Shown in pieces: positions 20,801 to 64,000 of a stretch of 64,000 nt of DNA (position 1 is the first letter of the stretch; the number at the start of each line of letters is the position of its first letter). The DNA comes from Psammoneis japonica (taxonomy: Eukaryota): assembly GCA_008632985.1 (NCBI GenBank), contig QPGO01000152.1:62001-126000 (forward strand), written 5' to 3'. The notes beneath the pieces are model-generated. The model was given only the letters and a program-made list of their open reading frames with translations. It did no database searches and was not told where the DNA came from. Made by a program: the position numbers and the translations under genes.

Positions 20801-20869
20801 ACAACAACAGCCGGCCACTGATGAAGCCACCATGAAAGTCTCGCCCCTGACTTTGGCCAACATTGTTGT
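20801..20869 (+). ncRNA. Minimal type I hammerhead ribozyme candidate, copy 1
   Basis: Stem I GGCCA(20813-17)/TGGCC(20854-58), CTGATGA 20818-24, 1-bp stem II, GAAA 20834-37, stem III AGTC/GACT, CUU cleavage triplet. Confidence 0.7.
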
Positions 20870-24910: not shown

Positions 24911-24978
24911 ACAACAACAGCTGGCCGCTGATGAAGCCACTGTGAAAGTCTCACTCCTGACTTTGGCCAACGTTGTTG
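24911..24978 (+). ncRNA. Minimal type I hammerhead ribozyme candidate, copy 2
   Basis: GGCCG/TGGCC stem I plus distal CAACAAC/GTTGTTG helix, CTGATGA 24928-34, GAAA 24944-47, stem III AGTC/GACT. Confidence 0.7.
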
Positions 24979-30200: not shown

Positions 30201-30521
30201 CAAGGAGCAAGCCTGCACAAACTAACTGTCGGTCATCACAGACAGAACGTACGTACAGCACAGGTACAATTGTACCGTATGTAAAGAATATACCAGAACC
30301 TTGCGTCACGTCCTGTCACGTCACTCTGACGTTTGGCCTGCTCACGTCGAACCAAGAAAAACGTGGCGGGAAGGCTATGCACGTGAAATCAGTACCGGAT
30401 CTGCAGTAGAAATGGCCGCATCATTCATCACTCGCATCACCGAACTCACGCACACAAGAATTCTTTCTGGACTAAGACAGAGGATACCGGTACAAATCCG
30501 AAGGAGTAAGTACTTTTGACC

Positions 30522-31004
30522 ATGACGGAACACGACGACCCTGTTGAAACGGCGATGGACAAGCTTAAGCCCCTCTTCTCCCAGTTGACCTTTGGGAGCA
30601 TCATGGGATTCAGCTCTGGATACGCTATGAAGAAAGTCGGCAAGGCCGTGGCTGTCGTTGTCGGAATGGGTTTCGTTGCACTTCAGGGCGCCGCGTACGC
30701 GGGCTACATTGACGTGAACTGGGACAAGCTCAAGGCCGGAGCGAAAAAGAAGATTGATACGGTACGTTTGCAATTTGGAGAAGCTTCCGATAGGCTTAGA
30801 TCTAGATTAATCATGATTCTTTCGGTTCTGGACTCATTTTTCCTTCATTTTTGTTTGTTTCTTTTTCCGCAGAACGCTGACGGCAAGCTCGACAAGGAAG
30901 ACGCCAAGGCGTACTGGAGAAAGCTCAAGAGTATCCTCACGTATAACCTTGGCTCCACAACTGGTTTCTCTCTTGGATTCGTCTACGGTGTCAAGTCTGG
31001 TTAA
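30522..31004 (+). CDS. FUN14 family protein (exons 30522-30761, 30873-31004)
   Basis: QLTFGSIMGFSSGYAMKKVGK...GYIDVNW; GTACGT...CCGCAG intron 30762-30872. Confidence 0.9.
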   Translation: MTEHDDPVETAMDKLKPLFSQLTFGSIMGFSSGYAMKKVGKAVAVVVGMGFVALQGAAYAGYIDVNWDKLKAGAKKKIDTVRLQFGEASDRLRSRLIMILSVLDSFFLHFCLFLFPQNADGKLDKEDAKAYWRKLKSILTYNLGSTTGFSLGFVYGVKSG

Positions 31005-31459
31005 ACAGATCTGACTTGGAAGTATATGGAGGGGATGATTCGGCGGATAGATCAGTCTCCGCCCCGAACGAAGAGGTCGTGCTACGTTTTTAGTCAGGGC
31101 CTCGTAACATATATGTCTAGAAGCGATAAAACAAAACTTTCTTGAGTCGAATTTTGCTTTGATGTGCAGAAAATGCATGTGCTACGGGTATGGATCGCGA
31201 CGGATTGAATAGTCGAACTCAGTAATACACGGTTCCAGAAAATCAGACCACTGTCATGTTAGATGTGAAGTGTACTCCTGAATTTGATGGTTCAAGACAT
31301 TTTCGCTACTAGCCATCCTTTTAGGTTGCTACACATCTCACAGGAACGACCGATGGCGCGAGTAGTGCGGCACACATTACTGCTAGCGGGAGCTTCGTTA
31401 AACTCTAGCAGACGCGCTCTCTTCTTAGAGCTAGTTAATCTACCGCTACAAAACAGCTC

Positions 31460-33780
31460 TATTCTGCAGCAACCAAAGAATGCGCTGGGGCCTGTCTCAT
31501 CCTGCAATGAGTGATTTTCTTTGCATTGAATGCATTGCAAAAGTGCTTCTGAGGCAATGTCATCGTGGTCCCACCCAGAGCTGGAACATGTGTCACTCAC
31601 CAATTTGGACAGCAAGAAAGAAGAGTTGGCAAGAGACAAGATCGGTGCTCAAGTCCAGCGTGGGATGGATAAGACAAAGCAGAGCCAAGCTGAGACAGAG
31701 GAGAGAGTTGAACAAGAAAAATTGGCTCTCCAAATGCAGAAGAAAGTCAGCAGTGTCAAGGCTGCCGCCCAAGCTGAAATCTGACATCAAGCTTGGTGCC
31801 AAGAAGGAAGAAAAGGCACAGGCTTGGAACAGCAAACAAGAAAGTTAACAGCATCAAGGCTGCCACCCAAGCTGAAATCTGACATCAAGCTTGGTGCCAA
31901 GAAGGAAGAAACAAAGGCACAGACTTTGAACAGCAAGAACACACATGCGTGTGATGGATGATTTGTGCGATGTTGCTGGCACAGGTTGGCTGCACATCTT
32001 GATTGCATCACAGGGACTGCCCAATGCAAGCAAGATGTTCATCACCTTTCATTGCAAAATGATGCACAGTGTGATGGCTGGGTCTTGTCTCTCACACGGC
32101 TTTTTTGTGTTTGCACCAGGTGCAGCACCAGCAAGAGATGTCAGCTCAAAACATGGGCACTTTGTCCCAAAGTTTTGCCAACATCTCTGGTTTCCAAAAA
32201 GATGTTTTGCAAGGTTGTGCCAGCTCAAACAATGTCACACCATGATGCAGAATTCTCAAGCTCACTGGCTGCTGGTGTGCCAACAAGAGTTTGTTCATCA
32301 GCCACCCTGTGTCAATCTCTCCAGTGTGGTGGCAGCAATCACATTGGCACAGAAGCTGCATCTGCCCAGCCAGCAGCAGCAATGTCAAGGTCACTGGAGT
32401 GTAGAACAACAGCCATGCTGGCAGTTTCTTGCAGCTCCTGCTGTCACTCAAGCCTTCTGCCCAAGCCATTGTCAGAAGCAGCCTTTGCAGCAGAGAAGCC
32501 TGGGGGCTTGGTGGCTTGACTGTGTGTGCCAGAACAAGATCAACTTTTTTACCATGGAATTGCTCACATTGAATGGCGAGTGTGAAAATGCCTGCAAACA
32601 ATTTGTTTCCTTGGTTGCAACAGAGCACACCATGGTGGCACACACAAAGAACGTGTCAAAAATCACCTCCACTGGTCTCCATCACACAAAGTCACATGTG
32701 AGCCACCTTTGGTTTGCCCCAGCAATGCACCTGTGTAAATTTACAGAGCTGATTGTTTTCCATTGGCCCCTTCATGAAGACACAATCAGAGAAATCATTG
32801 TTGCATGATGGCAGCCACAAAAGACTGTTTGAGTGCAAAAAACAAACAAACAATGAGTGGGTGGAGTTCATCCTCTGAACCAAACAATCAATCTGCCAGC
32901 CCCATTTTTCCTTGCAGCAGGAGCAGCACCAGTGCAGGAGCACCAACAACACCCACTCTGCCAACTCAGCGAGGATGTTTGCAGCCTTGCAGCAACTTGC
33001 ACACAACAACTGCTGTGCAGAACCAGCAGCAACAACCACACCAGCAACCACAGCCACATTTTCAGCCACAGCCACAGCAGCAAAAAGCCATTTTGGCAAC
33101 CACAGCAACAGAGTTGGCAGCCTCAGCAGAGTCAAAATCAGCAGCAGTGTCAGTTGTTGCCAAATCAGTTGTTGCAGCAGAGCCAGCAACAACTTCATCC
33201 ACCATTGCAGCAGAGCTGACAACAACCTTGCATGTCATTGTTGCAACAGAGCCAGCAACAACCTTGCCAGTCATTGCAGCAGGCCAGAGCTGGCAGCAAC
33301 AACAATGTGAGCAGCCAAGAAAAGAGCCACAGCAAAAGAGTTGCAAGTCAGTCGCTGGTTGCAGCAAGGCAGTCAGGTTCAAGAAAACAATTGGAAATGA
33401 CCAATGTTGCTGCCTCTGATGCTCTCCTTTCATCAGCCACAGGAGCAGACGAACCCTCCCTGGACTTGTTTCTGCAGAGTGCTTGACAAACTCTGCACAC
33501 AACAATGGAGAACCTTTTTCCATGTTTGGCTTTTGTGCTGGTGTCAAAACAAAACAGCACCCCCAGCTGAATCTGAAGCAGCATTTGTTGTCAATTCATT
33601 CAAATCAGTTGCCAATGAATTTGTTGCCAGAAAACCACAAAGGCAGGGTGCAGTTGCATTGCAGTTGAGTGCGCTTGACAAACACCGCCCAAAGAATTGC
33701 AAATTTGAAGCCAAGAATGCAAAAAGTCTTTTGTCACTAATGTTGTTGCAACAACAGTTGTGCCTGGTGGTGCTAAACGC
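31460..33780. other. TpA-depleted zone 2: unidentified low-complexity/repeat remnant
   Basis: Very few TA; internal duplication ~31755-31835/31853-31935; CAG/CAA-rich tract 32920-33320. Confidence 0.85.
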
Positions 33781-44527: not shown

Positions 44528-47500
44528 CTTTAGTCATGTATAATTGCATTGTCATTGCCTCTGTTACGGACATGCAAACCGCGTCTGGATTTAGTGCTGG
44601 GGTGGGGTTCAACAATGGTCACACGAAGAAGGACCAAGGGACAACACAAACACAATCTCACTTTCTTTCAATCAAATGCACACCACAGCGCTGTCTCAGT
44701 TTTGTGGATTGTGCTGAAAAAGCACCCCACAACCACGTCAGCACATCCCCTCCTCCAGTGCATGCGCAGTGGTGTGGGGTGACGCAAAAATGGCAACAGC
44801 AGCATGGTGTTTGAAGCAGACGCCACGGAAGGCATCTCCAAATGCTTCAGAGGCACATGTGGGCAACCCAGGGCTTGAGTGTCTGTTGGTCTCACACAGG
44901 AGTCAAAAGGAAATTTCTTGCAACAATCACTGTGTGCTGGCCCTGCGCTGCCTCTCTCTTCTTTGAGAGCAGCAGGGTTGTTGCAGAGCAAGCTGCCTGC
45001 GCCAGGAGACAAAAAATGCATGAGTGCTGCTGGCACTGCTGACTGAGCTGTGGCTGGATTGTGCACACATGCCAGCATGCTCTGTGCTCTGCAAAAATGA
45101 GACAAGAGCACAAAAGAGCTTGTGACCAGCTGGCGCTGCGCGCGAGAGAGCGGCTTTCAATGATGATGACATGCACGGCAAGCTCAAAGAGCTCCTGGGG
45201 GGCACTTTTACCAACTTTTTGGATTTGCAACAAATGGGAAAAACAAGAAGCTCCAACTCATTGGAAGACAAGAATGCAGTGCTTGACAACTTGTTGGAGT
45301 GAGAACACAGAAAAGCGAGATGCGACAAAAACTGCCACCAACAAGTGTGCACCAGCACCAGGTTCTGAAGTCTGCGGAGGCACCAGGAGGTTTGCCAGCC
45401 ATTCTTGCCACAGCACCAGTGCTTTTCTAAAACTGAATGTTTGCACATCATAAGAACAAAGCAAGAGACAAGACACTCTTTCATGCGTGCATGCAGCAGG
45501 AACGAGGGGGGCTGCGAAAGCACGCACACAGCAAGGCGCTGACAGTGACAGATGTGGCAGACAGCAAGATGATCATTTTCCCGCCATTTCCTTATTTCCA
45601 ATTTTCCAAACCAACTGCATCAATGTGAAGTGATGCGAGACAGATGTGAGATGTGAGCGCCGCAAAAACACTCGGGAATCGGAGATTCCCTGCCACCGCC
45701 TCGGCTTCGCCATGCACAACCCCAATGACATGACACAGCGCAAGCTGCCAAATGGCTGCAACAATCAATGCACGAACACATCCAATGCACAGAAACACAC
45801 ACAAGCACACACATTCGTGTGGTGCTGCTGAGATGGCAGCCAGAAAACAGGGAACAAATCTGCGGGGATCTCGTTCCGTCCATTTTTCCCCCCAACACTG
45901 TGTGAACAGAGGGCTGGGCTGGGTGGGAATTTTTCAGCATTGTCGGCCCATGTCGGGTCAACACAACTGATCCCATTGTCACCGGCAGTCCACCAAACAC
46001 AATGAGGGGAACTGGGGGCAGCCTCTCGTCATCGTCCGTCTGTCTGTCTGTCTGTCTCTCTCATGGTGACTGACCTTGCTCAATGCCACAGGTTGCAACT
46101 TGAGAGCTTGCTCCTTGAAACATGTCCAAGGTGGAGCCATTGCTTTCTTTCATCCTTGAGCCCCTGTGCATTGCACAGGATTTGCCCACCTCCCCTTGTG
46201 TGGAGGAGAGCTTGTCTGAAAGCTCAACTCTGTGAGACTTCTGAGTGCTTTGGTGTCAAGTTTACTTCTTGGTGGCTCTTGGCCAAGGTCCCTGGAGTTC
46301 AACTTGAGAATGGCATTGCATGGAGTGCATCTTTGGATCCTCTTTGCACCCAAGTTTAGATGGCAATGTCTGGCATCCAGCACACACGTGCCCTTCAAGT
46401 GTCAGCCCCACAGTTGGATCTTTTTTGGAGGAGGGCACCTCCAAGCCAAGATGACCAAGTCCAGTCTTTTTGCAAACTGTGACCAGTCAAACTTTCGTTC
46501 TTCTCTTTCTCACTTTTCCAGCTTTGTTGGAGCAGGAACACTGACCACTTCAGCTGGATCACACCGCAGCTTGGAAAAGCACTTTGTGCGATGGGTCTCA
46601 GATGCTCTTTTTTATCTGCACTGAAACCAGCACATGTTTTTTGAAGGTTGTTGTCACACAGTTGAAATCTGAGTGAGAAAAAAGACAAATGTGAAACAAG
46701 AATTCCACCATCTTCCGTGTTCCACCTGTTTTTTAACAAGCCATGTGCGAGGGTTGTGAGTCCTGAAAAACAGGTTTTGGGCCAATTTCTGGTGCAAAAC
46801 CCTCTTAGAAAATTTGCACAGAATGTCTTGTTGGTGTCATGTGCATCTGGCAGCTAAACTCATGGCTGGGGTTCAGTGGCCACAGAAGGCTGCACCACTG
46901 TTTCCATGCGGACTTGTCAATTTGCACTCAAACATGTTTGGAAGCCTGTGGTTTGGAAGTGAGACAAAGAGCTGCTGTGCACCTCCAGGTTCAATGGGCA
47001 CTGAGTCAACCATCTCAATCATGGATTGCAACCAAACATTTGTGACTGACTCATGATTCTTTGGACCCCATCTGTTGGGACACAAAATTGCTCAGTTCTT
47101 TCAATGTTGCCAAGCACTTTGCTTTGCAACAAACTGAGTTGAGGAATGAAGGAAGAGTGTGTTTTGGCACAATTGTGAAAAGGCTTGGATTGAACAGGCA
47201 AGCATGCAAAGCTGCAATTGTTTGGGTTCAGACAGACCCGGTTTGGTTGCATCAACAATTGATGTGGCCCGCATCACATTTTCATTTTGCTGTCGACAAA
47301 ATTCCTGTTTTTTGAAACATTTGCAGACTCCTTTGGATCTCCACTCTGATGTCAACTCATGAAAAGTTGTGCCTTTGAAACCAGGCAAAGAGACTCTGCA
47401 AAATCTGTGAACAAATCATCTTGTTGCGGACTTCAAAGGATTCAAGCCTTTAGCTGTTTTTCTTTCCTCCCACCCACCTGGCTTTAGATGCCAATGACAC

Positions 47501-49485
47501 AAGGGTGTCATGGCCGGCAGTCTGCACTTGGGGCTCCCTCGCATTTGCATTTGCGTTGGAGAACGTCGAGCAACTCTGCTCTGCTCTGTTTTGCCATTGG
47601 CGTTGGTGGGGCCGGGGCAGCGGGCCAAGGCTGGAGACAATGTGGCATGCTTGGGCCCGGTCTCAAATTTGGTCCCCGCCCCTGATTGCAATGAACTCCT
47701 CAAATGAAATGGGGGGACAAGCACTGAGGGTTTGTTCGGAAGACAGGGTTTTTGGCGGAGATGGTTCTGCCGCAGAAAATTGAGCACCGCTCTCTCTCTA
47801 GCTGCTGTAGTTGATTGTCCATGCAGACACCATGACACCATACATGGCATCTCTGGCTGCGGCAATCCTGGCATTGATTCTATGAGACACCACACAAAAC
47901 ACCACATTTCGCTAAAAAAAAAGTGTGCAGGCAATTGATTTGTGGCCCCAGACCCCGACGAACTCATTTCTTGTGTGTTCAGAAGCCTTCAAATGCCACC
48001 ACAAATCAATTTTCCCTTGTGTTGTCCATGAGCCCCCATGCCCTGTGGTGTTTGACACTTTGCTGTCAACGGCAAAACAATTGGGGAGCATTGGAAAAAT
48101 TGTGGTGGCGTTTTGGATTGAGACACCATGTTGATGCCATGTTTTGTCCAAATTGGTTCCTCCTCTCTCAGGTGGAACTCTCTGCATCGAAGTCTGAAAC
48201 CAAAAGATTTTGGATTGCCGTGCTTGCTGCTGTCAGAAAATAGAGGCGTGACGATTGCTTGCACCAATCATTTTGCTGCATTTTTTTACCTGTTGAGTGA
48301 GTTTTGCGCCGGGCGTCCAAATTAACCACAACACATGACGGTTGTTTTTCGAAACAGGGTGCCATGGTGTGCACTTCTGCATGACCCACACGACCTGACT
48401 AACATGCGTTGGGGCCAGAGCAGTGCATGGTGCTGGTTCTTTTGCTTCTGACCGTTCTGTCTTCTGTGAGGTTTCACGAGTTCATCTGTGCATGTTGATG
48501 TTGTCTAATTTGAGGTGCGGTGGCTCAAGTGAAAGTGAAAGTGCACGAAATTTGTGCATTGATGCAGTTGTCTTTGCTGAACAGTTAGTTGCAACTTGCG
48601 TCCATCCCATTGTTTCTGTCCATGCTCAATCCGCGGTGGCTCAAGTGAAAGTCTGAGTGTGTGAAAGTTGTGCATTGATGTGGTTGTCTTTGCTGAACAG
48701 TTAGTTGCAACTTGCACCCATTCCATTGTTTCTGTCCACACTTGTTCCGCAGGATCCTTGCTTGCTCCTTCTCCTGCTCCATTGCTCCCACTTCTTCTCC
48801 AGCTCCTCCTCGGTGAAAAATCTCCCACCGGTCTGTGGTGGTGCCGCCGCCCACGCTGCCTTTAGCTCCTCCATGGTTGAATCATCCCTGGGCACGACCG
48901 TTGCTTCCACATGACAACCGTCCACTCTTGTGTTGTCTGGCACAAGCACAGATGAGACATCATAATTTCCTGAAGCAAGCTTGAACGCCGCTCTTGCTTC
49001 TTCCACTGTAATCTTCTCCCCACCTTCTTTGTTCATTGCTGACTGAAACAGTTCCGCATCTGTCTGCACCCTTTTCTTGTCCTCTCCAGTTTTCTTTGGC
49101 TCGTCTGCCTTCTTTGTTTGTTGTTGCAAATCCATTTTTTTCTCTGTTGCTCCATTTTGTGTGACGTTTGCGTTCACGTGTTCTTGGTTTGTTGGTTGAA
49201 ATCCATTCGACGTTGTGTGACGCATGTGCAGATTTCTGCGCAATGTGCTGGTCTAATCGAAATTTTCGATTTTACAAAATTTTTGTGTTTTTACAGTTGG
49301 TTTCACCAAACAGTTGCACAGTGGTTGGGCATCCTAATCTTGTGTTTGCGTGCTACATCAATGCTTCTGCGCACTGTTGCTGAGAGAAATGCGTGGCGCT
49401 TCAAACCTTCATGAGTCTTGTCAAGGCTTTGCAGCCTTCTGGGACCTTGTGTCTTTACTCTGGAGAGCACAACATGCACCCAATT

Positions 49486-52400
49486 CTAAGTGTAGCTCCA
49501 AGAGTGTACAAACAACTGCAGGACTCCACTCCCTTGCAGTTTGTGCCCTGTGTTGGCATTGTTGATGACAAACGGCAGCTGAGTTGCCTTCAGTTGGAAA
49601 GTGTGCCTTTGTTTGTCGCCTTCTTCTAAAGTTAGGTTGGGCTTGGCAATGCAAGCCCTGAAAGCATTTGTTTTTGGCTCAACTAAAAACTTCGCGGGGT
49701 CGATGCTTTTGTTGCAGTGCTCCAATGCAACATGGTCTACCTGACTGGCAAGCACAACAGGAATGCCAATGTTGTTGTCTAAAGTCACCAGTCTTGGCTC
49801 CTGTCCTGGTTTGAGAATGACCTTGTCGACAGTGGCTTGCACTCCATTTGCTTGACCCTTTGCCACATTTTCATTGAAAGGTTTCATGACTCTGCATCTT
49901 CTGTAAATGCGTAAGACTGGATCCATTCTTCCTGATTGCATGACAACATCTCCTTCCCCACAGTTGTTCCAGAAGCTGTTGCAAACCGGAAACAGTTGGT
50001 GGAGTCTTGTGCCATTCTGTGCCTGCAAGTCGTCACTGAAAATCAACATTGAGTCAAGGACGTTTCCATCTCTCCCATGTGGTGTTTTTGCTCTTTTTTC
50101 AAATGGGCCAGTGTCAATTGCATCTCTGTCCTCATTTGCGCATGCAGCACAGCGGAGGTCACTGGGCAGATCATCTTCGTTCTGGACTGCTCGTTTGTCA
50201 ATGTGCTCCATGACCTCAACTGTGCTCCAACCAGTGCGGAATCTCTTGAGCAGTTGTCCCCATGCTGGATCGTTTCTAAACCTGTGCATGCCACGAAGCT
50301 CTGTGCAGCAGTTGATCCACTTGTGAAATTCAGGACATGCATCTTTGCACAGTGGTTTCACTCCTTTTCCGACTGGTTCTAGTTGCCTGAGGTCACCTGC
50401 AAAAACAATGTTGATGCCACCGCACAGATTCCTTGGTTTGCTTTTCAACACTGTCAAATTCTTGTGGAGCTTCTCTGGTTCTCTCTTGCTTGCAAAAGAT
50501 GTCTCATCTGCCACCAGAAGTCTCGTGTCCGACCAGGCTTCAATTTGCTCTTCGGTCATTTGCTTTCTTCTCATGAGGTGTGCAACTCCGTGGATTGTGT
50601 CCCCTTTGAGAACAGTCGCAGCCACTCCGGTCAGTGCAGTTGTTCTGATTGTGCTTGTTGTGAACGGCTGCTTGACAAGCGAGCAATGCTCTCTGCTGCA
50701 TTCCACGATGAGGTCTGTTGTGGTTGATTTGCCACTTCCACCTGCACCATGCAAAAAACACACAAGTTGCAACGTTCTACGCCTTTGCACTTCCACGAGT
50801 CTCTTCAATCAACAAAGGTTTGTTGCGAACTCGTGTCTGCTGTTTCTTCCATCAAGTCCATTGCCTGACGTCTCGTCTTGAAGGGCATCTTGGCAGCAAG
50901 TGAGTGCAAAGGTTCCTGCCAGAATTTCAAAGGCACACTGCTGTTGCCTGTCCAGTCTTGCTTTCCCAGCCCAGTCTGCGTCACTTGCTGCAGATCCGTT
51001 TGCTTGACATGCATCAACATGTTCCTCCAAACCTGTTGCATCCTCAAACGACCTTCTTGTTCTTTGTGTTCTAGTCAGTGTCACTCGAACAATGTCGTCT
51101 CTTGACAGAGTTCTGCTGTGCATGTCTTGTTCTGCTCCTCCATTCTGCTCCTCGTCATTGGTGTCATCGCCACCCTCTAGAATCTCAAAAAGTTGTTGTT
51201 CATCAACCTGGCTTTCCTCATCTGGTGGGTCAGTGTGCATGTCTGCCAAGCATTTGTGACCACCCATGTGTGGACCTTTCTGTCTTGCACATTCACTGCT
51301 CAAATGCACAGGAATGACTGCTTTGTTGCTCAACCCAATGTCATCGTGTTCTGGCTGCTCTGCCATTTCTTCCAAGAGTGCATCCAGCAGTTGGCCCTGA
51401 ACGGCGCCTGAAAGACCTTCTTCCTCGTCACTTTTGCAACAGTCAAATGCAACGTCAGCAGGTTTAAATTGCTCCGTGTTTCTTTGCAGCTTGTCAGATG
51501 TGCTCTTAAGACAAAGACAGTTGGACTCAGCATCCTGCAGGTTCTGCAAGAAGTTCAAGTTTTCCTCTGCAATGACACCGGCTGCTGCGGACAGCTGGAA
51601 TTCACGCAGGCATGTGTGGCCCACTGGTTTGAGCTCCGTCATTGTTCTGTAAGGCGCAAACAAGGCCAGTGCCAATTTGCAGTGCAATTCTTTATCTGGT
51701 GTGGTTGGTTGCTGCAGATCCATTGGGGAACTGCCAAACTTGGCTGCATTGGGAAAATCACACTGAAGTGCTTTTGACAATTGTGGTTGCTCCCGTTGTC
51801 TGACACCTTGAAGAAACTCATTCTTTGTTGAATTGCAAGACGGGTGCCTGTGCGCTTTGTTGTCAAACATCATCATGCCGTGTTCGTTTTTCCTTGTGTT
51901 GCAAAGAACTTTGCATTCACTGAAAAATGCAAATGGACTGAGATTCTCCAGTGATGTTGGACAACATGGGCAGTGCAAGGCCTGGCATTGGAAGAACGGC
52001 GCATCGCCAAAATGGGCTACAGTCGCAGACACTTCGTCTCTTTCTAGTGTGCTGACAATGTCTTTCAAGGGGCACCATGCGGTCAAATGAGATTCGATGA
52101 AACGGCTTCCATTCCTTGTCATGTAAGATGCAAGTGGTGGTCCAATGACACTCATCTTGTTGTGCAAGCAAGCACCCCATGTGAGATGTCTGATTGCTTC
52201 CAATGCATCAGACGCGTGTTTCCGTAATTCCGTTGCTGTCCTGTTTGTAGTTCGAAGCACTTTGTCACACGTTGCAGCATCATCCTTCTGAGTGTCTTTT
52301 AGGATGTACTTGATCGTGTGTTGAGTGGACGGACCAGGCATCAACAAAGCAATGTTTGTGTTGCATGTCAGTTTCGATCTGCTTGTTGCAGGGCATGGCA

Positions 52401-53300
52401 TGCTTTGAAAAGCATCGCACTTTCTCCTCTTCAGAACAACTTCCTTCACGTGCCGACACGCAAAAGTTCCATCCCAGCTGAACCACTTTATCTGAGTGTC
52501 GTCTGCGTTCCTTGTTAAATTTTCTCAACACGAAGCAGCTGGTTGCCTGTGACGGCAGTCACCTGGTTTGAGCTCTTCTCGTTTCCTCTTCCGTGACTGC
52601 ACGTCCAGTTCCTCGTGTGGGTTTTTTTTACGCATTTTACGCAACTCTGCGCATTTGGGAAAACACGACTTCGTAACGTGCATGTGATGGTTGTAAGCTG
52701 CATCTGGCATGCATGCCTCCATTGTCCCCTGCGGACCACTTTGTTGGCACTGCACACACATTGCTTTTAGTCACTTTGCATGGTTGTCTGGACAGCAAGT
52801 CAGGCCAGGCACACGGTGTTGTGACTGTAAAAAGCTTTCTACAAACTCGACGTTTGTCCAGCACTTGGTGCAGTGACGACAACAAGCAAACATCCCGTTC
52901 TTTGACTGCTGGCCATCTTTGTGCCTCAGGTTTCTCAGCTGTTGGTCATCTGCCACTTTTGGGGAGCTGCAATGCCGTTTTGGCACTGCACAGTCATGAT
53001 CAAATGCTTCACGAAATGCGTTGGTGCTAAACTCCTCACCAGAGATTAATTCTGTGCTGCAGATCTTCTGAGCTGTGTTGGCAAGGCACTCAGCACCTTC
53101 GCGTCTGATCTGTCTTATTTGCAAATGAAGTTTCTCTCTTGCATTGTTGATCAATGCGAGCCAGGTCTGCATGTGTCCATGCACTGTCAGACGTCCCTGC
53201 TCCTCAACTGCAGCTAAAAAGGCGGCTGGCCTGCCAATGTAGAAGTTAAAGTTTTCTCTTGGTTGGTTGGCACAAACACGGGAGTTGGCCTTGTCCATCT
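49486..53300 (-). mobile_element. Degenerate Helitron RepHel coding region
   Basis: HUH motif VEEQGRLTVHGHMQTW (53208-53161), HTIKYILK (YxxKYxxK), PIF1 helicase motifs GAGGSGKS, LLVADETSF, GGINIVFAGDLRQLEPV, MHRF, TGHKLQG; frameshifts; termini not resolved. Confidence 0.9.
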
Positions 53301-53469
53301 TGGTTTAAGCTGTTGCTTCATCTTGACAAGTTCAAAGCAGTTGCCCATCAAAAGCAGTTGATTTTTCCTCTTTCTTAGTTGGCTGGTTGCAACCAGGGCG
53401 AGTTCCGGTCACCGCAACAGGGGCATGCTTCACGACCGGTGCAGTCCGATCACCGTGAAGGCTGCAATC

Positions 53470-53880
53470 GGTGCTGTCCAATCACCACAGCTCTGTGTGT
53501 TTTCTCACCACCTGTGTGATCAAGTTGCTGTGAGTGCTGCGACTGGTGTCATCCAGTCACCACAGTCAATTTGTCCAGTTGATTGACGAACTGCGTCGGT
53601 GCTGTCCGTTCACCGCAGCGATGTGTCATTTTCTCACCACCTGTGCAATCAGGTTGCTGTGAGTGCTGCGACTGGTGTTGTCCAGTCACTGCAGCCAAGT
53701 GGACTGGTTGATTGACGAACTGCATCGGTGCCATCCGATCACCACAGCACAGTGTCGTGTTCTCACGACCTGTGCGATCAGGTCTCTGTGAGAGCTGCGA
53801 CTGGTGTCATCCAGTCACCGCAGCTGAGCTTGTGCGTTGTCTCACAACCTGCACTGCCAGGTCACTGTGAGAACTGAGAA
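53470..53880. repeat. Degenerate tandem repeat, ~128-bp unit x3
   Basis: ctgtgag(t/a)gctgcgactggtgt..tccagtcac recurs near 53530, 53660 and 53790. Confidence 0.8.
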
Positions 53881-54742
53881 CTGCAATTGGTGTGGCCCGA
53901 TCACTGTAGTTGGATGCTTTTTGTTTCCCTTTGCGCAAAGGTTTTGTCACAAAAAGTGAGACGAAAGTGTGCCTCTTTCACCTTGACAAAACAAGCGATG
54001 CATGCGTTCCTCCCATGCACTTGTTTGCACCAGACATGCAACATCCTGCTAAATTTTGTCAATGTTGAACATCCCAAGGGGCAAGATTCGGATCTTGTTC
54101 AAGTTGTTTTGGCAATCTGCATTGAACATCCCATGGGGTACATTTCGGATCTTGTTCAAGTTGTTTCGGCAACCTGCATGGTGGGCATCGGCTGCGCAAA
54201 TTCCGCAGAACTGCACTTTAATGAGTCGCGGGGCAGTTGAGTTGGTCGTGGGGCAATGGCATGCAATTGACGTCATTCGGGTTTCCAACGCGCACGCAAA
54301 TCCTCCAATTGGGTGATGGGGCCACTGGTGCCAGCGATGACGTCGACTCGTTTAGATTTCGTGTGCGATGGCCATGCGCGAATTTTTCAAACACGGCGTG
54401 CTAACTCCACCTGTGTGCCAAGTGATGTAGAAAGTCATTTTAAACAGACACTGAGATGCGTTGATTTGTCAAGACGCGTTTAGGTGGGAGAAAATCCGTT
54501 TTGAAACTGAGCCTGCTTCTCATCGTTGCCGCACTTGCACACCCGTGTAATTTGAGCGCACAAGCTGGCACGGCATGTGACGCACTTCTACACGTGAACT
54601 CGCACCAAGATTGCCGTGGGATGATCCTCCCTCCACGGACCCAAAAACGGCGCGACAACACTTCCGTCATCATTTTGAAAGCACTTCACCTTGAGACACA
54701 CCAAGCATGGGGGGTTGGGACTTGCAGCTCGCAGCCCGACAA

Positions 54743-54936
54743 AAAGCAAATGCTTCTTGCCATTGGGTTTTGACCCAACTCCCCTGGAGTCCACCGGTCC
54801 CTGTCTACAGAGTTTTGCTTTGGGTGCTGTTGAGGCAACGGAAAGCAAATGCTTCTTGCGATTGGGTTTTGACCCAACTCCACTGGAGTCTGCCGGTCCC
54901 TGTCAACAGAGTTTTGCTTTGGGTGCTGTTGAGGCA
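54743..54936. repeat. 99-bp tandem duplication
   Basis: aagcaaatgcttcttgc...gggtgctgttgaggca occurs twice. Confidence 0.9.
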
Positions 54937-55496
54937 CAGAACAGCGTTTGTGAGACGTCAACATCAACCCTGTGTGCCACGGGTTCGACCAGATATCGCG
55001 TTTCCCAACCAAACTGTGAGTTTGTGCAAAATGCGTAAGTTTACCGTCGCGCACTCCATGCGCGCGAATTTTTCAAACGCGGCGTGCTAACTCTACCTGT
55101 GTATTGAGCGACGAAGAAAGCGCGCCCTTACTGCCGGTACGTGGCGCGTCTGTACCTGTATACGTCCGTCTGCACTACGTTCTACCGTACGGTACTACAG
55201 CGCCGTATCAAAACTTCCGACCTATTTTTTCAGCGTTTATCCTAAAATTAGCATTGTGTTTGAATGAGTTAATTTATATTTATTAATTTTAAATACAAGA
55301 ATTGTTCGATCGCCCTCGAAAACGAGAAAATCACTTCCTTTCTTTTCCTTTTTTCTCTTCTTCTGGCTGGGAGGAACTGCTGGATAGGATAACCATAGAG
55401 TGGCGATGACACTCTAGACTCTCTACTCTAGAGAATTGTCCCTCATCGCTCATCGCCCGTCCACGACCAAACATTGAGGAACACTGGAGTTTAACC

Positions 55497-58400
55497 ATGT
55501 CCGATGCCATCGAGTTGCTAAAGCTTGGTGGCGAGCACTACAAACATCAGGATTTTGTAAAAGCTGTGGAATGCTTTCGTCAGGCTGCTGATCAAGGCAG
55601 CATGCACGCGGTTTATAATGTTGGCGTTTGCTGTGTTTATGGACAAGGCGTGGAAAAAAACGAAGCAGAAGCGGTTCGTTTGTACCGTCAAGCTGCGGAT
55701 CAAGGCCACCTCGATGCAATCTATAGTCTTGGCCTTTGCTATGAAAACAGACAAGGCATAGGGGCCCTAGAGAAGGACGAAGAAGAAGCGATTCGGTTAT
55801 ACCGGCAAGCTGCGGATCAAGGCCATCTTGGCGCAATGTCTGCTCTAGGCAACTGCTACTTCGTTGGAAGATGCGTGGAGAAGAATGAGGAAGAAGCGGT
55901 TCGGTTGTACCGTCGAGCTGCGGATCAAGGCCACCTCGATGCAATCTATAATCTTGGCGTTTGTTATGTAAACGGACAAGGCGTAGAGAAGGACAAAGAA
56001 GAAGCAGTTCGGTTGTACCGTCGAGCTGCGGATCAAGGCCACCTCGATGCAATCTATAATCTTGGCGTTTGCTATGTAAACGGACAAGGCGTAGAGAAGG
56101 ACAAAGAAGAAGCGGTTTGGTTGTACCGTCGAGCTGCGGATCAAGGCCACCTCGATGCAATGTATAATCTTGGCGTTTGCTATCGAAACGGACATGGGAT
56201 GCAGAAGGACGAAGAAGAAGCGGTTCGGTTGTACCGTCAAGCTGCGGGTGAAGGCCATCTTGACGCAATGTCTGCTCTAGGCAACTGCCACTTAGTTGGA
56301 AGATGCGTGGAGAAGAACGAGGAAGAAGCGGTTCGGTTGTATCGTCGAGCGGCGGATCAAGGCCACCTCGATGCAATCTATATGCTTGGCTTTTGCTACG
56401 AACAAGGACATGGGATGCAGAAGAACGAAGAAGAAGCGGTTCGGTTGTACCGTCAAGCTGCGGGTGAAGGCCATCTTGACGCAATGTCTGCTTTAGGCAG
56501 CTGCTACGTAGTTGGGAGATGCTTGGAGAAGAACGAGGAGGAAGCGGTTCGGTTGTATCTTCATGCCGCAGATCAAGGCAACACAAATGCAATCTATAAT
56601 CTTGGCATTTGCTATGATAACGGACAAGGCGTAGAGAAGAATGCAACAGAAGCGGCTAGGTTGTTTCGTCGAGCTGCGGAACAAGGCCACCTCGATGCAA
56701 TCTTTTATCTTGGCATTTGCTATGAAAAGGGACAAGGCGTAGAGAAGGGCGAAGAAGAAGCGGTTCGGTTGTACCGTCAAGCCGCGGATCAAGGCCATCT
56801 TCACGCAATGTTTGTTCTAGGCAACTGCTACTTAGTTGGAAGATGCGTGGAGAAGAACGAGGAAGAAGCGGTTCGGTTGTATCGTCGAGCGGCGGATCAA
56901 GGCCACCTCGATGCAATCTATATTCTTGGCTTCTGTTACGAAAATGGACAAGGCGTAGAGAAGGACGGAATAGAAGCGGCTAGGTTGTTTCGTCAAGCTG
57001 CGGATCAAGGCCACCTTAATTCTATTTTTGGCCTTGGAATGGTTTACCTTTTCGGAAATGGTATTCGTCAGGATGTAACGCTCGGTATTGAATTTGTGGA
57101 GAGGGCTGCAATGCAAAAACACCCATCAGCTCTCTCTAATCTGGCGGGCTTCTACTTGGCTGGTTTTGGGGTGAACAGGGACGTCCGTAACGCCAAATCG
57201 CTATGTCACGCTGCTTTGGACGCTGGAAAGGACAATGGCCATGCATCAATGATTCTTGCCGACATTCTCGCCACTTCATTGAATTTGAGCGATCTTGATG
57301 AGGCAAAGGCAGTGATTCTCAACATGCGAGATGGTTCAATCTTCAAGAAATATGGCCTTTGGCTGCTTCCTTTTCTCAAGAAACAGCGACGAAGATTAGC
57401 TTTTGTTTCGTCGCTCCGTACCATGACATTGCACCCCGATAACATTGAGGACATATCCATTCGTCCGGTTGCACTAATTGGTAGGGGGCACTTTGCAAAT
57501 GTATACTTGTGCTGGTTTCTAGATCGATGGGTGGCAGTGAAATATCTTTCTGTCAATCTAATTAACACGGAGGAAGATGTCGCCGATGCAATTATGAATG
57601 AGCGGCTCATTTGCCGCATCACAAGAACTCGCAACCCTCCAGGTGTTGTCAAGTACCTTGGCTTTGTAGATGATTTGCGTCATCAAAACCGTGGGCTTGT
57701 TTTTGAGCTACACGCTGGCATTGATGCAGTTGAAAGCACGGCGCAGCTTAGATTGGAGAGCAAATTTGTTGTAGCCCAAACGGCGGACTGGGATGCACTC
57801 GAGGATTTCACCGAAGACGTCATAACAACTCTTCGTCAGGCAGTGGTTCAACCCAAGGGCTCGTCACCTAGCATGCAGACAATACTTCGAATTCTGTGGG
57901 ACGTTGCGGAAGCAATTGGCGGCTTGCATCTTGTCGGAATTCTGCATCGCGATATTGCAGATCGAAATGTCCTTTGCAACGGCCCGCCTAATTATGATGT
58001 GAAGCTTGCAGACTTTGGTCTGTCAAAACTTGTGGGAATCCCAGAAGCCGAAAATTTAGTTGCAATGTACGTGCAAAAGACCCATTCTGACGCGGCGTTG
58101 TACCCGGCCGCACTCATGGCCCCCGAGACTGTGGTGGCAGAGGGCCCCGTCTATTCCACCGCGTCAGATGTTTGGTCGTTCGGCATGCTTGTTTACCAGT
58201 GCATTACCGGGTCGGATCCATTTGAAGAAATAACTACGCAAAATGATAAACACTACAAGATTATTCAGGCGGAAGTAGTGGCCGCAATTCTTGGTGGTCG
58301 CAAGCCGGATCTTAACAGAATGCGAAAGGGCACACCCGAGAATGTAGTAGAGCTTATGAAGGATTGCTGGGCAATGGATCCCGAGGACAGGCCTTTGGTG

Positions 58401-59954
58401 TCAGATATCATCGTACGTCTTGAGGAGATTGCTGCCGGTCCCTTCATACCATGTCGTCCTGTGATGAGGAAAACAGAGGACATCGAAGAGAAATGGAATG
58501 AAGTTGTCGAGCGTAAATATTACAAGCTTACATTCAATGACATTGAAGCCCAATCCGAATGCGGGCCTTTCGTTGGTGAGTATGTGCGGCAAAAACTCGC
58601 GGATGTTGGCCACGACGTGGCGCCATCGGAGACACTGGGCAGAGATTTGCTGGAAAACCTGGATGTGGATTGCGTGAGACCGTACGATGTTCACATTGTG
58701 CACACTGGCAAGTTCGAGAATGAGCCGGCACAGATTCTGAAGTCGCGGCTGGAGCCCAGGGGATTCCGATGTTGCTTCGGTCAAGGAAACGATGGAAACG
58801 GCGAACGGATGCCAGCCTCGCAACTAAAGTTTGCCCTCGAATCGTGTCGCTACTCCATTTTGCTCATTTCTATGGCATTGTTGCAACGGAGGGATCCTTG
58901 CGAAGAAATCGAATACGTTTCGAAACGAATGGCTTGGATTGATGGACACTGCAAGTGGGAGTCGACTTGGACTGTACTTTTGGATATTTCTTTAGACGAC
59001 TTTGATTCGCACCGCGAGTCTCGTCCATCACTTCCGGACATTCGTCAATGGAAAAACGTGTACCAATACAAAGAAGGCGAGGGCATGTATCGCGACCTAC
59101 CCCTTTTGTTTGATAAACTGAAGGCAGACCTCGTTGAAAATGACAAGAATGAGAGAGCGGTTGAGAAGTGGAAATCCTTCCTCGGACGTTGGGAAAGTAA
59201 CGCAGACTTTCCCAAGTGCTCGCTGGCCTCATCACAACCCAAGTTATGGTCAATCACTTATGAGCAGCTCGTGGGCATTCGCAGCAAGGCAGCTTCACTT
59301 TTTGAAGCTACCTCCTATTCCGAAAAGACAATGCGGGACGTAGTCAAGCACATCGTCAAGCCTTCCTGCAACGATACAGGTAAATCATACGCTCTTCAAT
59401 TGAATCCTAACGGCCTCATGGTGGATGCATTCGTCTCGCATGCTTGGGATGAGCCCTTCGAAGCATTCTTTAATTCTATCCAGAAAACGTTTCGTGAGTG
59501 CGTGAGAAAGCCGAATCTATGGATTTGTTCCTTTGCTCTCTTTCAAGGCGACGACGAAAAGGTGAAGGGGCAGCTTGGCAGCCCTAATGATCGACTTTCA
59601 GACGCGCCGTTTGTGAGGGCCTTGGAGCATGCTTCTACCTTTATAGTGGTTCGAAACTCCATCACGGATGTTTATAATCGTATATGGTGTGTCTGTGAAG
59701 TGATTTATGCGAAAGAGTACCGATTCTACCCGGACAACGCCCGTGTGGCCGGTCCAAACAAATTTTCCAGTTCCAGGTCAAGTTGTATGGATGCGAAATG
59801 CTGGGACGCTAGTGACAAAGAGAGGATCCTCAAGGAGCTGCTCACTCATCATGATCGGGAGGAAATAGATAGCACAATAAATGAAATCCGGGAGCATGAT
59901 TCTGAGACACTTGACCGTGACCAGAACACACTTGACATGTGCACCATTCAATAG
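55497..59954 (+). CDS. Sel1-repeat / TKL-type protein kinase / TIR-like / second TIR-HET-like domain protein
   Basis: 1485-aa intact ORF; ~15 Sel1 repeats; GRGHFA, VAVK, HRDIADRN, DFG, APE; YDVHIVHTG...DPCEEI; FVSHAW...LWIC...RIWCVCE. Confidence 0.88.
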   Translation: MSDAIELLKLGGEHYKHQDFVKAVECFRQAADQGSMHAVYNVGVCCVYGQGVEKNEAEAVRLYRQAADQGHLDAIYSLGLCYENRQGIGALEKDEEEAIRLYRQAADQGHLGAMSALGNCYFVGRCVEKNEEEAVRLYRRAADQGHLDAIYNLGVCYVNGQGVEKDKEEAVRLYRRAADQGHLDAIYNLGVCYVNGQGVEKDKEEAVWLYRRAADQGHLDAMYNLGVCYRNGHGMQKDEEEAVRLYRQAAGEGHLDAMSALGNCHLVGRCVEKNEEEAVRLYRRAADQGHLDAIYMLGFCYEQGHGMQKNEEEAVRLYRQAAGEGHLDAMSALGSCYVVGRCLEKNEEEAVRLYLHAADQGNTNAIYNLGICYDNGQGVEKNATEAARLFRRAAEQGHLDAIFYLGICYEKGQGVEKGEEEAVRLYRQAADQGHLHAMFVLGNCYLVGRCVEKNEEEAVRLYRRAADQGHLDAIYILGFCYENGQGVEKDGIEAARLFRQAADQGHLNSIFGLGMVYLFGNGIRQDVTLGIEFVERAAMQKHPSALSNLAGFYLAGFGVNRDVRNAKSLCHAALDAGKDNGHASMILADILATSLNLSDLDEAKAVILNMRDGSIFKKYGLWLLPFLKKQRRRLAFVSSLRTMTLHPDNIEDISIRPVALIGRGHFANVYLCWFLDRWVAVKYLSVNLINTEEDVADAIMNERLICRITRTRNPPGVVKYLGFVDDLRHQNRGLVFELHAGIDAVESTAQLRLESKFVVAQTADWDALEDFTEDVITTLRQAVVQPKGSSPSMQTILRILWDVAEAIGGLHLVGILHRDIADRNVLCNGPPNYDVKLADFGLSKLVGIPEAENLVAMYVQKTHSDAALYPAALMAPETVVAEGPVYSTASDVWSFGMLVYQCITGSDPFEEITTQNDKHYKIIQAEVVAAILGGRKPDLNRMRKGTPENVVELMKDCWAMDPEDRPLVSDIIVRLEEIAAGPFIPCRPVMRKTEDIEEKWNEVVERKYYKLTFNDIEAQSECGPFVGEYVRQKLADVGHDVAPSETLGRDLLENLDVDCVRPYDVHIVHTGKFENEPAQILKSRLEPRGFRCCFGQGNDGNGERMPASQLKFALESCRYSILLISMALLQRRDPCEEIEYVSKRMAWIDGHCKWESTWTVLLDISLDDFDSHRESRPSLPDIRQWKNVYQYKEGEGMYRDLPLLFDKLKADLVENDKNERAVEKWKSFLGRWESNADFPKCSLASSQPKLWSITYEQLVGIRSKAASLFEATSYSEKTMRDVVKHIVKPSCNDTGKSYALQLNPNGLMVDAFVSHAWDEPFEAFFNSIQKTFRECVRKPNLWICSFALFQGDDEKVKGQLGSPNDRLSDAPFVRALEHASTFIVVRNSITDVYNRIWCVCEVIYAKEYRFYPDNARVAGPNKFSSSRSSCMDAKCWDASDKERILKELLTHHDREEIDSTINEIREHDSETLDRDQNTLDMCTIQ
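55575..57020 (+). repeat. Highly conserved 108-bp Sel1 coding repeat array
   Basis: gcggatcaaggccacctcgatgcaatcta-type unit repeated at 108-bp spacing. Confidence 0.95.
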
Positions 59955-60479: not shown

Positions 60480-63400
60480 AGAGACAATGAAAAAAGATGC
60501 GATGGTGGAAGATGCACCTGTTGCAGACGAATCGTCCGGTGACCAGCCACCGTTTAAAAAACCTGCAGCTCCTCCCATGCCCATGTGCAATCATCCCCAT
60601 TGGCGGGTGGTGATGAAGCTCAAGCGACCGAGGCTGGTCAAAGATGAGGGCGGGGTGCCATCTTGGTGCTTTTACTTTGTGTTCAATGAAAACCAAACAA
60701 GAGCTCTGTTGGACAAGATGAGACTGTCTCTGTTCCTTGCATGCAATGACAGGTCAGTCCAGGTGCTGACAGCCAAAGCTTTTTAGGCTCATTTCATCAT
60801 TTCCATTCCCAGTGCTTTCCAAAATCTAAAAAACCCCCCGCTTTTTTGTCTGTGGGGTTCCCCCTTTCATTGAACACTTCTGCTCCCCAAAACCCCAAGC
60901 CTGTGGGTGAGGGCCCAAGAATGGCCACCCACCAAGGACCAAGGGCCAACACAAACACACAACCTCACTTCCCCCTTCAACCAAATGCGTGCCACAGCCC
61001 TGTCTCAGTTTTGTGGGTTGTCCTGGCAAAGCACCCCAAAACCATCACACCCAGTGTGCCCAGCCAGCAAAAAGATGGCGAGTGCTGTGTTTGAAGTGGG
61101 GCCACCAAGAAAAAAAGTCATTTTCAAAAAGGCTCATTCCAGCCCCAAGTGATTTGCAGTCCATCATGCGAAAATTCAATTCTCTGTGCAGTTTGGCACA
61201 TTGACCTCCTTCAAATTTGATCATTTCGAAAATCGAAAAGCAGTGCCCACCAACAAATGAGAGTTCCATGTCTGCCTTTCAATTTGAAAAAAAAAATTTT
61301 GAAGGTGTTTGTTGCACTGAATGCAAAAATGGGCCAGTGGCAGATCACGCGTGGTGTGCAGGACACCTGGAGCTGGAACAGGCCAAAAATGCTTCAAAGG
61401 CATGCACGCAAAAGAGCCAGAGTTTTGGCATCTGCCTGCCTCAAAAAAAGATTCAAAAGAGAAATTTTCTTTCAAACCACTGTGAGCCACGCTCTTTGAG
61501 TGACAGCGTTTGGGTCATTGCACACCAGCAAGCTCTGCACAAAAAAGAAAAATGCGCCTGACTCTTGTCGGGTCAGGCACATTTTTGCAAATGTGTTGAA
61601 AAAAATGCGCCTGATCAGAGAAAAGAGTCAAGTCCATTTTTCGCAAAGTTGAAATTCGCCAAGGACGGACAGACAGACAGACTTTTCCAACAATTGTCTT
61701 GGTGGTGCTGTTCTGCACATTTCTGCGCAAATGACTCTGCAGCGCGAAAGATTGCCGTGAACGGTCTTGACAAGTTGTCCATGAACACTTTCTAAAAATT
61801 GTGGGAAAAGCTGCGATTGACTGCAGCAATGGTGCTCGGGTTTCTGTCGCAGAATTTCTTCAAGGTGTCAACAATCCCGGTCATTTGAATCTCCCAAATC
61901 TTGCAGCTGATGGTGCAATTGTGACGCAGAAGTTCACTTCATGCCATTGCCAAGCATCTCAATTGAGGTGCAAACCTCAATTGAAGATGGTGCAAAAAAT
62001 GGTGTGGAATTTGACAGAGTGAACGGCAATGCCGGCTTGAATTTTTTGGGCACCAAAACTGCAAAAAAAGCATTTTTGCAACAGGGGCGGCATTTTTCCA
62101 TTGCTGAATTCTTCACATTCTTGCCACTCTCTCTCTGCTGTGTAAATGTGTGGAGAGCAAATTCCAATTTGGTGTGAGTCAGGCCCAAACGACCGTTCAA
62201 CGTCTCTGGCGGGACACCCATTGACCACTTGTCTTTCTTTTTGTGGGTGTGGGTGTGCATGTGCCATTGCACGCAGCATTGCCTGCATGTGCGCAGGGCC
62301 CTGCTGCCGGGGCTGGCAACAGTGGCAGGGTGGCGGGGCCAACGCACCGGTGACATGGATGACCGTTGTGTTTTGTGGCTCACGCCACCCCTGTGGCAGG
62401 GGAGCTGTGCGTGTGTTCGTGGTTGCGCGCACGGCTTTGCCATCCATTGAGTTTTGATGTTGGCACCCACATGCATGTGTGCGTTCCACAAGCAAAAATC
62501 CCCATTCCAGCATTTGTGCCCAAATGCACAAACAAATGAGAGGACATTTGTGTAAAAACACAATGAATGAGCCATGAATCTGCCGCGCAACCATGACATC
62601 ACCACATTCTCCCCTGCTGCACCACAGGGCGGGGTGGGCTCATGCCATTTTTGGGGCTGTGGTGACGTGCACTGACACTCTTTTTTGTCCAATTTACCAC
62701 CAAAATGGTGCATTGCACAAACTTTCTCATTGTTGTTCAACATGTTTTTTTCGAATGTGACCGTTTCGCGTGCAACTCACGACAAATGACATCCATTGAG
62801 AGCCCCATGAATTTCCACCATGATGCACCGGCAATCCCAGTTTTACCGCAGTTTTGAGCTCTTCTGAAAAACCGCACTGCGCACCCATCGCAGGGATTTT
62901 GTCGCTTTTTTAGGAAGTCCCCCGCGAACCCCAATGTCCCCAATGATCATTCTCACAATGCGAATGACACACCTGCACCAAACAAACCATGCCGTTTTGT
63001 GAATGCCAAGGGACACACTCTCAATCGCCAACATCCCGACCAACCCACCAACTGACTGACTGACTGACTGACTGACACGAAACCAGCCTGGCTGCGGGGA
63101 GCATTGACCACTTGTCTTTCTTTGTGGGTGTGGGTGTGTGTGCGGTTGCGTGCAGCATTGCCTGCACATGCGCAGGGCCCCACCACCAGGCTGGCATTGT
63201 GGCGGCAGGGTGGTGTGGCCACCGCACCGGTGACGCGGACGACCATTGTGTTTTGTGGCTCATGCCATTTTTGGGGCTGCAGCGAGGTGCAGGGACACTC
63301 TTTTTTGTCCAATTTACTGCCAAAATGACGCATCGCACAAACCTTCTTGTTGTTTGACATGTTTTTTGCAACATGACCGTTTTGCGTGCAACTCATGAAA

Positions 63401-64000
63401 AATTACATCTGTTAAGAGCTGGATGCATTTTTCACCACGATGCGCTGGCAATCCCAACTTTACTGCAGTTTCAAGCTCTTCCAAAAAACTGCACTACACA
63501 CCCGTTGCAGGGAATTTGTCGCTTTTCCAGGAAGTCCCCACGAACCCCAATGTCCCCAATGACAATTCTCAGAATGCAAATGACACACGTGTGCTAAACA
63601 AACCATGCCGTTTTGAATGCCGAGGGACACACTCTCAATCGCCGACATCCCAACCAACCAACCGACTGACTGACTGACTGACTGACATGAAAAAGTCTGC
63701 AATCACCAACCACCAAGTGGTCAGTGAAAGTCTGCAATCACCAACCACCAAATGGTCAATGAAAAATCCCACCCCTGTGTCAGTGGAGAGTGTGTTTGGT
63801 GATGTCATGGTGATGCATGCTCACGTCATGGCATTTTTGTGTTTGTGTTCATGTGCATGAGACAACATTTGTGCACAAATGCTCACAGTTGCAGGAAAAA
63901 TCCTGAACCATGTGTGCTCTCCCCCAATCTTGAGCTGCCTCGAAGGGACCCCACCAATGGAGACCTGGACATTTAAAAAACGGGAGACAGTGCGCACGCA
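60480..64000. other. TpA-depleted zone 4 (unidentified repeat remnant, runs off window)
   Basis: Few TA; homology to 44600-44830; internal duplications. Confidence 0.85.
62637..63690. repeat. Diverged duplication at 620-bp spacing, each copy ending in (GACT)n
   Basis: ggctcatgccatttttggggctg at 62637 and 63257; (GACT)n near 63055 and 63665. Confidence 0.9.

Follow-up and report, generated by a model that had tools for sequence, protein, structure and literature searches.

Repeat-induced point mutation (RIP) makes TpA and is set off before meiosis by duplicated sequence. It has been reported for Neurospora and other ascomycetes, in the accessible text of the source, that RIP changes C to T, that the changes fall on the same strand in 91.9% of clusters, and that the mutation leaks into flanks (PMC7296669). 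Diatom transposons have been reported to be CG-methylated via DNMT5, as far as the accessible text describes (PMC9998398). Hypermutation restricted to TpA has been reported in the integrated NCLDV and virophage sequences of Bigelowiella natans, with a per-generation rate measured in mutation-accumulation lines at ~1000-fold above background in the text available (Mettrop et al., bioRxiv 10.64898/2026.01.13.699255). Among the literature searched, which was mainly outside subscription papers, TpA loss of this kind is described in that one preprint on one unrelated alga, and no diatom report of TpA loss was found.

The window analysed here is a stretch of 64,000 nucleotides from the diatom Psammoneis japonica (contig QPGO01000152.1, positions 62,001 to 126,000). 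It is an alternation of gene-bearing DNA and zones that are depleted in TpA. The TpA o/e is 0.03-0.15 in the zones and 0.54-0.77 in the gene-bearing stretches, and the CpG o/e is 0.11-0.51 in the zones and ~1 in gene-bearing DNA. CA and TG are elevated in the zones while GC is the same as elsewhere (~49%). The TpA loss is restricted to the zones and in that sense confined to mobile DNA, of which a Helitron is the sole element identified by search. The zones and the genes that the text refers to are as follows.

11755-30222: TpA-free zone (TpA o/e 0.03, CpG o/e 0.28) that holds the 28257/28596 repeat pair
31466-33773: TpA-free zone (TpA o/e 0.05)
39.3-40.3 kb: housekeeping gene whose relatives with legible names are all diatoms
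44596-55030: TpA-depleted zone containing the Helitron, with an approximate right limit
55497-59954, + strand: Sel1-repeat/protein-kinase gene, the TA-normal flank, with its ATG ~110 bp from the Helitron end
60557-64000: TpA-free zone that holds the 62637/63257 repeat pair and is TA-poor past the window end too

The third zone ends at 54135 and has a gap at 51998-52695 according to the HMM, and the comparison with a sibling element moves the limit of TA loss to ~55030. The zone at 11755-30222 has many ORFs that are stop-poor and tyrosine-poor and look by eye like retrotransposon relics; none of the six frames scanned against Pfam gave a match. The ORF at 55497-59954 is long and looks intronless, and it consists of 14 Sel1 repeats, a protein kinase, and a C-terminal part without assignment. 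A 108-bp tandem repeat lies within a 343-aa ORF at 8707-9354 in TA-normal DNA. Its copies are as much as 98% identical and their TA is not erased, and because of this local duplication alone may not trigger TA loss.

The Helitron has the following parts.

48153-55387, - strand: HLE2-like Helitron copy with both repeats, delimited by homology to the C292 sibling and the F2 copies
49306-53259, - strand: degraded RepHel coding region, from a PIF1 match, the domains of homologues, and tblastn to a homologue
48156-48163: left arm of an 8-bp subterminal inverted repeat, in a small hairpin
55370-55377: right arm of the 8-bp subterminal inverted repeat
54372-54434, + strand: inner repeat copy, ~1 kb from the element end
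55056-55120, + strand: edge repeat copy, on the inner border of the spared rim

The TpA o/e of the Helitron interior (48153-55000) is 0.17. The RepHel region is left as three open pieces (49486-50808, 50809-52524, and 52771-53304). RepHel combines an HUH Rep with a PIF1 helicase; the element itself has the PIF1 match, and its homologues have PF14214 and PF05970. The homologues also have PF20209, which we take to be DUF6570. DUF6570 is described as an HLE2 marker in the accessible text of PMC11417382. The element resembles the HLE2 (Helitron2/Helentron) group as described there in its RepHel and its lack of 5' TC and 3' CTRR, and perhaps in its short subterminal inverted repeat and its 3' hairpin, and it differs in the length of the inverted repeat, which is 8 bp here and 12-16 bp in the published elements (PMC11417382). 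We call the element HLE2-like from these published features of the ends (PMC11417382) rather than from a RepHel tree. The hairpin at the element end is weak (-5.7 kcal/mol). Most right flanks start with T, and a possible T/T insertion site is visible on one side only.

A sibling Helitron on contig C292 is 79-91% identical to the window element, in blocks. A related family, F2, has 33 stretches that carry the repeat motif ~3.7 kb from the element end, once per copy and twice in L078. The genome searches for family copies score the best 40 candidates, so that all counts of copies are lower bounds.

The direction of the change was determined at protein columns conserved in at least 70% of 40 full-length outside RepHel proteins. 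At 22 conserved Tyr columns, the window element has kept Tyr in four and has Cys in eight, His in six, Phe in three, and Ser in one. The reverse was seen at none of 14 conserved His columns and none of 15 conserved Cys columns (Fisher p=2e-7), and no stop was found at 12 Trp and 20 Gln columns. The C292 sibling has kept 2/13 conserved Tyr and has Cys or His at nine. The pooled F2 copies, which are not independent, have kept 22/223 and have Cys or His at 167. The F2 DNA alignments (26 and 24 copies) agree with the protein columns. Sites split between TA and another state are CG in 4 cells against 125 expected and in 2 against 97 expected, a near-absence that is expected if the first change destroys the target. 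TA appears in 10/7080 cells at CA-majority sites and in 12/6505 at TG-majority sites of the outer block (~0.1-0.2%).

These comparisons of proteins and copies make it very probable that TA is changed to TG or CA and that the change is specific to TpA. The reverse reading, a RIP-like process in which CA and TG are ancestral and TA was created at the edge, is compatible with the repeat pair on its own. It is refuted by the conserved protein columns, where Tyr became Cys or His with no opposite changes and no Trp or Gln became a stop, and by the CA- and TG-majority sites, at which TA almost never arises. Same-strand clusters are also absent here, unlike what is described for RIP in the accessible text (PMC7296669). 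We leave this reading next to no chance.

The first-pass annotation had read TA as ancestral from the two repeat copies in the Helitron and had treated the pair as an internal control for the direction of mutation. The letters it quoted are correct (inner string at 54389-54419 and edge string at 55075-55105), and so are its three differences, which are CA/CG at 54392/55078, CA/TA at 54408/55094, and TG/TA at 54416/55102 (inner/edge). The repeat is 63-65 bp long, and its copies at 54372-54434 and 55056-55120 differ by eight transitions, one transversion, and a 2-nt gap. The similarity is not due to chance because the motif is part of a transposon family for which 40 or more genome matches were scored. 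The pair fails as a control of direction. The two sequences are symmetric, and a change of CA or TG to TA, which is what RIP would produce, fits them equally. The inner copy has two TA and the edge copy three; the TA at 54428 of the inner copy is absent from the edge copy via the transversion. The TpA rule gives no simple account of the TT/CC and G/A differences directly after the third site. Both copies are paralogues that lie in one Helitron outside its coding region, and the duplication predates the split of the window and C292 elements because the sibling holds both as well. The edge copy is ~290-330 bp inside the element, whose true end is at ~55387. Contigs of run X1 read 54091-54540 with no other letter and 54907-55309 with four, and this run is possibly the assembly's own sample and so gives no independent support.

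The family copies give the three sites different meanings. Site 1 (CG/CA) is CG in 25/26 F2 copies and is lost in 3/4 of the window and sibling copies. Its ancestral state on these copies is evidently CG, and it is useless as a position marker because CG is also lost in the C292 edge copy. Site 2 (CTAC) is TA in 21/26 interior F2 copies and CA in both inner copies; it is a slow context, and the CA common to the inner copies may have been inherited from a single change. Site 3 (GTAT) is TA in both edge copies and TG and CA in the inner copies, and the F2 copies have CA in 23, TG in 3, and TA in none. Judging from these copies, only site 3 is a clean position marker among the three.

The 28257/28596 and 62637/63257 pairs had been cited as similar cases. 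Their letters read as quoted, but they were rejected as edge-versus-inner pairs because all four copies lie at least 1.6 kb inside zones. The pair at 62.6/63.3 kb has three sites with TA in the second copy and one with TA in the first (TA at 62911 versus CA), and the left zone edge is nearer to the copy with less TA.

The spectrum was counted from the family copies, with ancestral-TA sites that were chosen from the polymorphism itself, so that the rates are approximate and partly circular. Per A, the A>G change reaches 0.38 where the preceding base is T and 0.005-0.009 where it is A, C, or G, which makes it 41-70 times commoner at TpA. A:T->G:C transitions are in effect restricted to TpA, as in B. 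natans-type hypermutation. The corresponding figures for C>T are 0.070 at CpG and 0.004-0.005 in other contexts. The ancestral sites that survive are 20-28% for TA and 86% for CG, and TpA loss is ~nine times faster than CpG decay in the same zones; the remaining positions differ at ~0.3-1% in most copies. There is a roughly twofold preference for TAY, with A before a pyrimidine changed at 0.48-0.53 versus 0.22-0.25. RTAY and YTAR number 5 and 71 in the zones of the window and 345 and 201 outside.

The F2 copies are near star-like, with an SD of pairwise sharing of 0.050 versus 0.045 for the binomial. Most changes are post-insertion because the copies share states little beyond chance. No same-strand clustering was found in the F2 copies, where the same-outcome ratio is 1.018 within 30 bp (z 1.7) and 1.00 beyond 100 bp, although many overlapping rounds could mask clusters in this test. 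Local coupling between TA and CG changes was not found either (ratio 1.01-1.03).

The retention of TA appears to depend on what lies beside the element end. The flank cut-offs are not uniform across the analyses. The right-end set consists of 26/33 F2 stretches, with three dropped for a shared flank and four for a missing end. In the last 100 bp, TA is kept at 34/47 sites of the 12 copies with a TA-normal flank and at 7/51 sites of the 13 copies with a TA-free flank, and the figures for 100-200 bp are 35/76 and 18/84. Flank and terminal TA are correlated across the 26 copies (rho 0.56, p=0.003; with interior retention partialled out, rho 0.45, p=0.02), and terminal CG shows scarcely any difference between the flank classes. 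Among 13 of 14 further ends (one is without the motif), flank and terminal TA are again correlated (rho 0.65, p=0.015) and the interior is uncorrelated. A classification by the distal flank only, which covers 38 ends and overlaps the first right-end set, separates 15 open from 20 closed ends (p=2e-5). The window and its sibling exhibit the same effect at two places.

55060-55396: TA-retaining rim beside the Sel1-kinase gene, in which window and sibling keep 48/52 TA alleles
48153-48425: left element end in a TA-free flank, where the window keeps 3/15 TA sites and the sibling 14/15

The rim compares with 109/350 TA alleles kept in the interior of the two elements, where some CA/TG splits may derive from CG. 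The left flank has a TpA o/e of 0.14 in the window (TA-free) and 0.62 in the sibling (normal), and no site is kept in the window but lost in the sibling. This left-end contrast is the control that the first-pass annotation sought. The annotation is partly supported. The pair that it offered is a weak control, but its two conclusions stand on independent tests. That TA is ancestral is borne out by the protein outgroup and by the sibling and family copies, and that mutation depends on position is borne out by the family right ends, the further ends, and the rims of window and sibling. The finding named beforehand as speaking against it, an outgroup or consensus with CA or TG ancestral and TA gained at the edge, did not appear.

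The element ends are likely to be spared by position beside TA-normal DNA, judging from these copies, and direction and position effect together are held with good confidence on the same comparisons. The alternative is that the rim is not positional, and that open-flank copies are younger or the parent was under selection at its element ends. It gains from interior TA retention beyond 1 kb, which is a little higher with TA-normal than with TA-free flanks (0.31 versus 0.26, p=0.005), and from two terminal sites that are retained in nearly all copies regardless of flank. It also gains from the left ends of the family. In that set (16/20 stretches, with two without the motif and two with a shared flank), TA is kept in the first 200 bp at 57/97 versus 19/65 sites, in the same direction as on the right, but the rank tests are non-significant (per-copy rho 0.23, p=0.38; Mann-Whitney p=0.11); a one-sided permutation gives p=0.02 with a cut-off chosen afterwards. 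Fully eroded ends beside open flanks occur in 2/9 on the left (L090 and L092) and in several on the right (L085, L092, and L094). However, the terminal contrast of 0.72 versus 0.14 is much larger than the interior one. What a copy retains of TA at one end does not correlate with what it retains at the other (rho 0.01, n=15), which disfavours age alone, and the within-copy difference between ends tracks the difference between flanks (rho 0.57, p=0.03 as a binary measure; 0.42, p=0.12 as a continuous one). The window element itself is eroded at its left end and spared at its right. We consider a non-positional rim quite improbable. Copy age or silencing strength does contribute to retention because interior retention differs slightly with the right flank, and causation could be partly reversed, with mutation that spreads outward from strongly silenced copies adding to the correlation.

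Under the mechanism that we propose, a TpA-specific A:T->G:C process would act on silent, transposon-bearing stretches of the diatom genome. The sequence comparisons support that every inserted copy is mutated after insertion, on both strands and site by site, and that a TG or CA formed from TA escapes further change. They also support that an element is largely spared over its last 200-350 bp beside TA-normal DNA and is mutated there beside another TA-free stretch. The zones would be silenced, CG-methylated chromatin, in which CpG decays too. The lesion may be DNA adenine deamination by a TadA/ADAT-type enzyme that prefers T-A-pyrimidine and would be fixed at replication over many divisions. 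This enzyme is favoured partly because the natural target of TadA reads U-A-C, and it is a tentative best guess as the source of the lesion. A PF00383 deaminase search of the genome gave nine matches, by eye dCMP deaminase, organellar TadA-like, ADAT2-like, RibD-like, and other ordinary ones. All nine look like housekeeping proteins, with no special candidate among them, and the ADAT2-like gene is expected in any eukaryote. A tandem pair of dCMP-deaminase domains was observed on two contigs (C41:505477-506590 and C317:55748-56795).

Other sources of the mutation have to be weighed against a TadA/ADAT-type deaminase. Sequence comparison cannot separate an A lesion from a T lesion. The T of TpA could be oxidised or modified in silent chromatin and pair with G, giving T->C, which is A>G on the opposite strand; all counts fit this equally, and the motif is readable as RTA. 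Thymine modifications occur in protists. No Tet_JBP match was found in the genome, but the control was equally silent and this is not evidence of absence. We rate a thymine lesion as unlikely. Damage could also arise at TpA genome-wide and be repaired only in open chromatin, so that the zones and rims would reflect where repair has access, with no targeted mutator. Such a process accounts for the spared rim beside genes and for the unclustered pattern, and TpA o/e is just 0.57 overall even in the non-zone DNA of the window. However, it requires a very frequent TpA-specific lesion, given that the remaining transitions in these copies are less frequent by a factor of 40-70, and the B. natans process was on in only 11/15 lines in the text available (10.64898/2026.01.13.699255). 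Repair access as the explanation is rather doubtful.

The decay of CpG alongside TpA loss in the same zones, correlated across copies (rho 0.49), would fit an error-prone Pol eta-like polymerase that places G opposite T while it fills in patches where repair started from deaminated methyl-CpG. Pol eta mutates ApA too at a substantial rate, but A>G is 41 times rarer after A than after T in these copies. TA and CG changes also do not co-occur locally, strand clustering is absent, and TA loss is ~nine-fold ahead of CG loss. A polymerase of this kind is a poor candidate and most probably not the source. Deamination remains our preferred reading, and taken as a whole, it is possible, though somewhat less than probable, that diatoms have a chromatin-guided DNA-editing defence that is the mirror image of RIP, in which TpA, and best of all T-A-pyrimidine, is edited singly across silent domains ~50-fold faster than other transitions and gene-side open chromatin sets the boundary 200-350 bp inside the transposon.

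Judging from the mutation pattern, the diatom process works like the TpA hypermutation of B. natans. Both change TpA to TpG or CpA only, on both strands and confined to foreign or mobile DNA, and adenine deamination was proposed in the text available for B. natans (10.64898/2026.01.13.699255). The two hosts belong to different supergroups, and the targets are transposons in the diatom and integrated viruses in B. natans. The TpA o/e of the NCLDV region is 0.45 in B. natans, and the diatom zones go down to 0.03. CpG decay alongside TpA loss is a feature of the diatom, unlike B. natans as described in the accessible text. That text reports no TAY preference, spared rim, or strand-cluster test (10.64898/2026.01.13.699255), and its rate rests on experiment, whereas the diatom rate is inferred from copies. 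The likeness to RIP is that context-specific transitions degrade repeats and leave regional dinucleotide signatures, in the accessible text of PMC7296669. The direction is opposite, the diatom lacks strand clustering, and the rim of the element itself is spared. Neither C->T changes that produce TpA nor same-strand clusters, the marks of RIP, were found in the diatom. CG methylation via DNMT5, as described in the accessible source, would account for the decay of CpG to TpG and CpA in the zones, and C5-methyltransferase domains are present in the genome (27 matches). It is unable to yield the change of TA to TG or CA, which is the faster change in the diatom.

A regional A:T->G:C mutator in repeats would oppose both the usual AT bias and RIP. 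The copies yield testable properties, namely the direction, the TAY preference, the absence of clustering, a rate ~nine times that of CpG decay, and the sparing of a rim according to the neighbouring DNA. These properties narrow the candidate enzymes and predict where the chromatin mark should stop. In diatom annotation, the removal of TAA and TAG stops and of Tyr codons would leave old elements with long false ORFs and distorted ages. If the pathway is common to the diatom and Bigelowiella, SAR protists would have a form of immunity by genome editing that is either old or convergent, and the editor would be a natural one for adenine in DNA.

Several minor observations concern the Helitron copies. 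The sibling Helitron holds two related ~5-kb insertions (C292:22340-27500 and 28955-33685) with a right end in common, which is TA-rich though inside an eroded element and may be younger or resistant. Its rim holds a ~525-bp MITE with long terminal inverted repeats (C292:34330-34855) at the spot that matches 55134-55147 of the window, which carries a short unlike sequence there. An AT-rich piece of ~118 bp (55217-55335) is present in the window and C292 ends and absent from other family ends, and its high summed contig depth suggests a separate small repeat. Some Helitron copies have the flank on one side in common (left L069/L081/L089; right L065/L072/L082 and L070/L076), which suggests that they arose by segmental duplication or read-through transposition or that they are haplotype copies. 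L074, L077, and L109 have F2-type bodies with the right end of another Helitron subfamily, which suggests end swapping or recombination.
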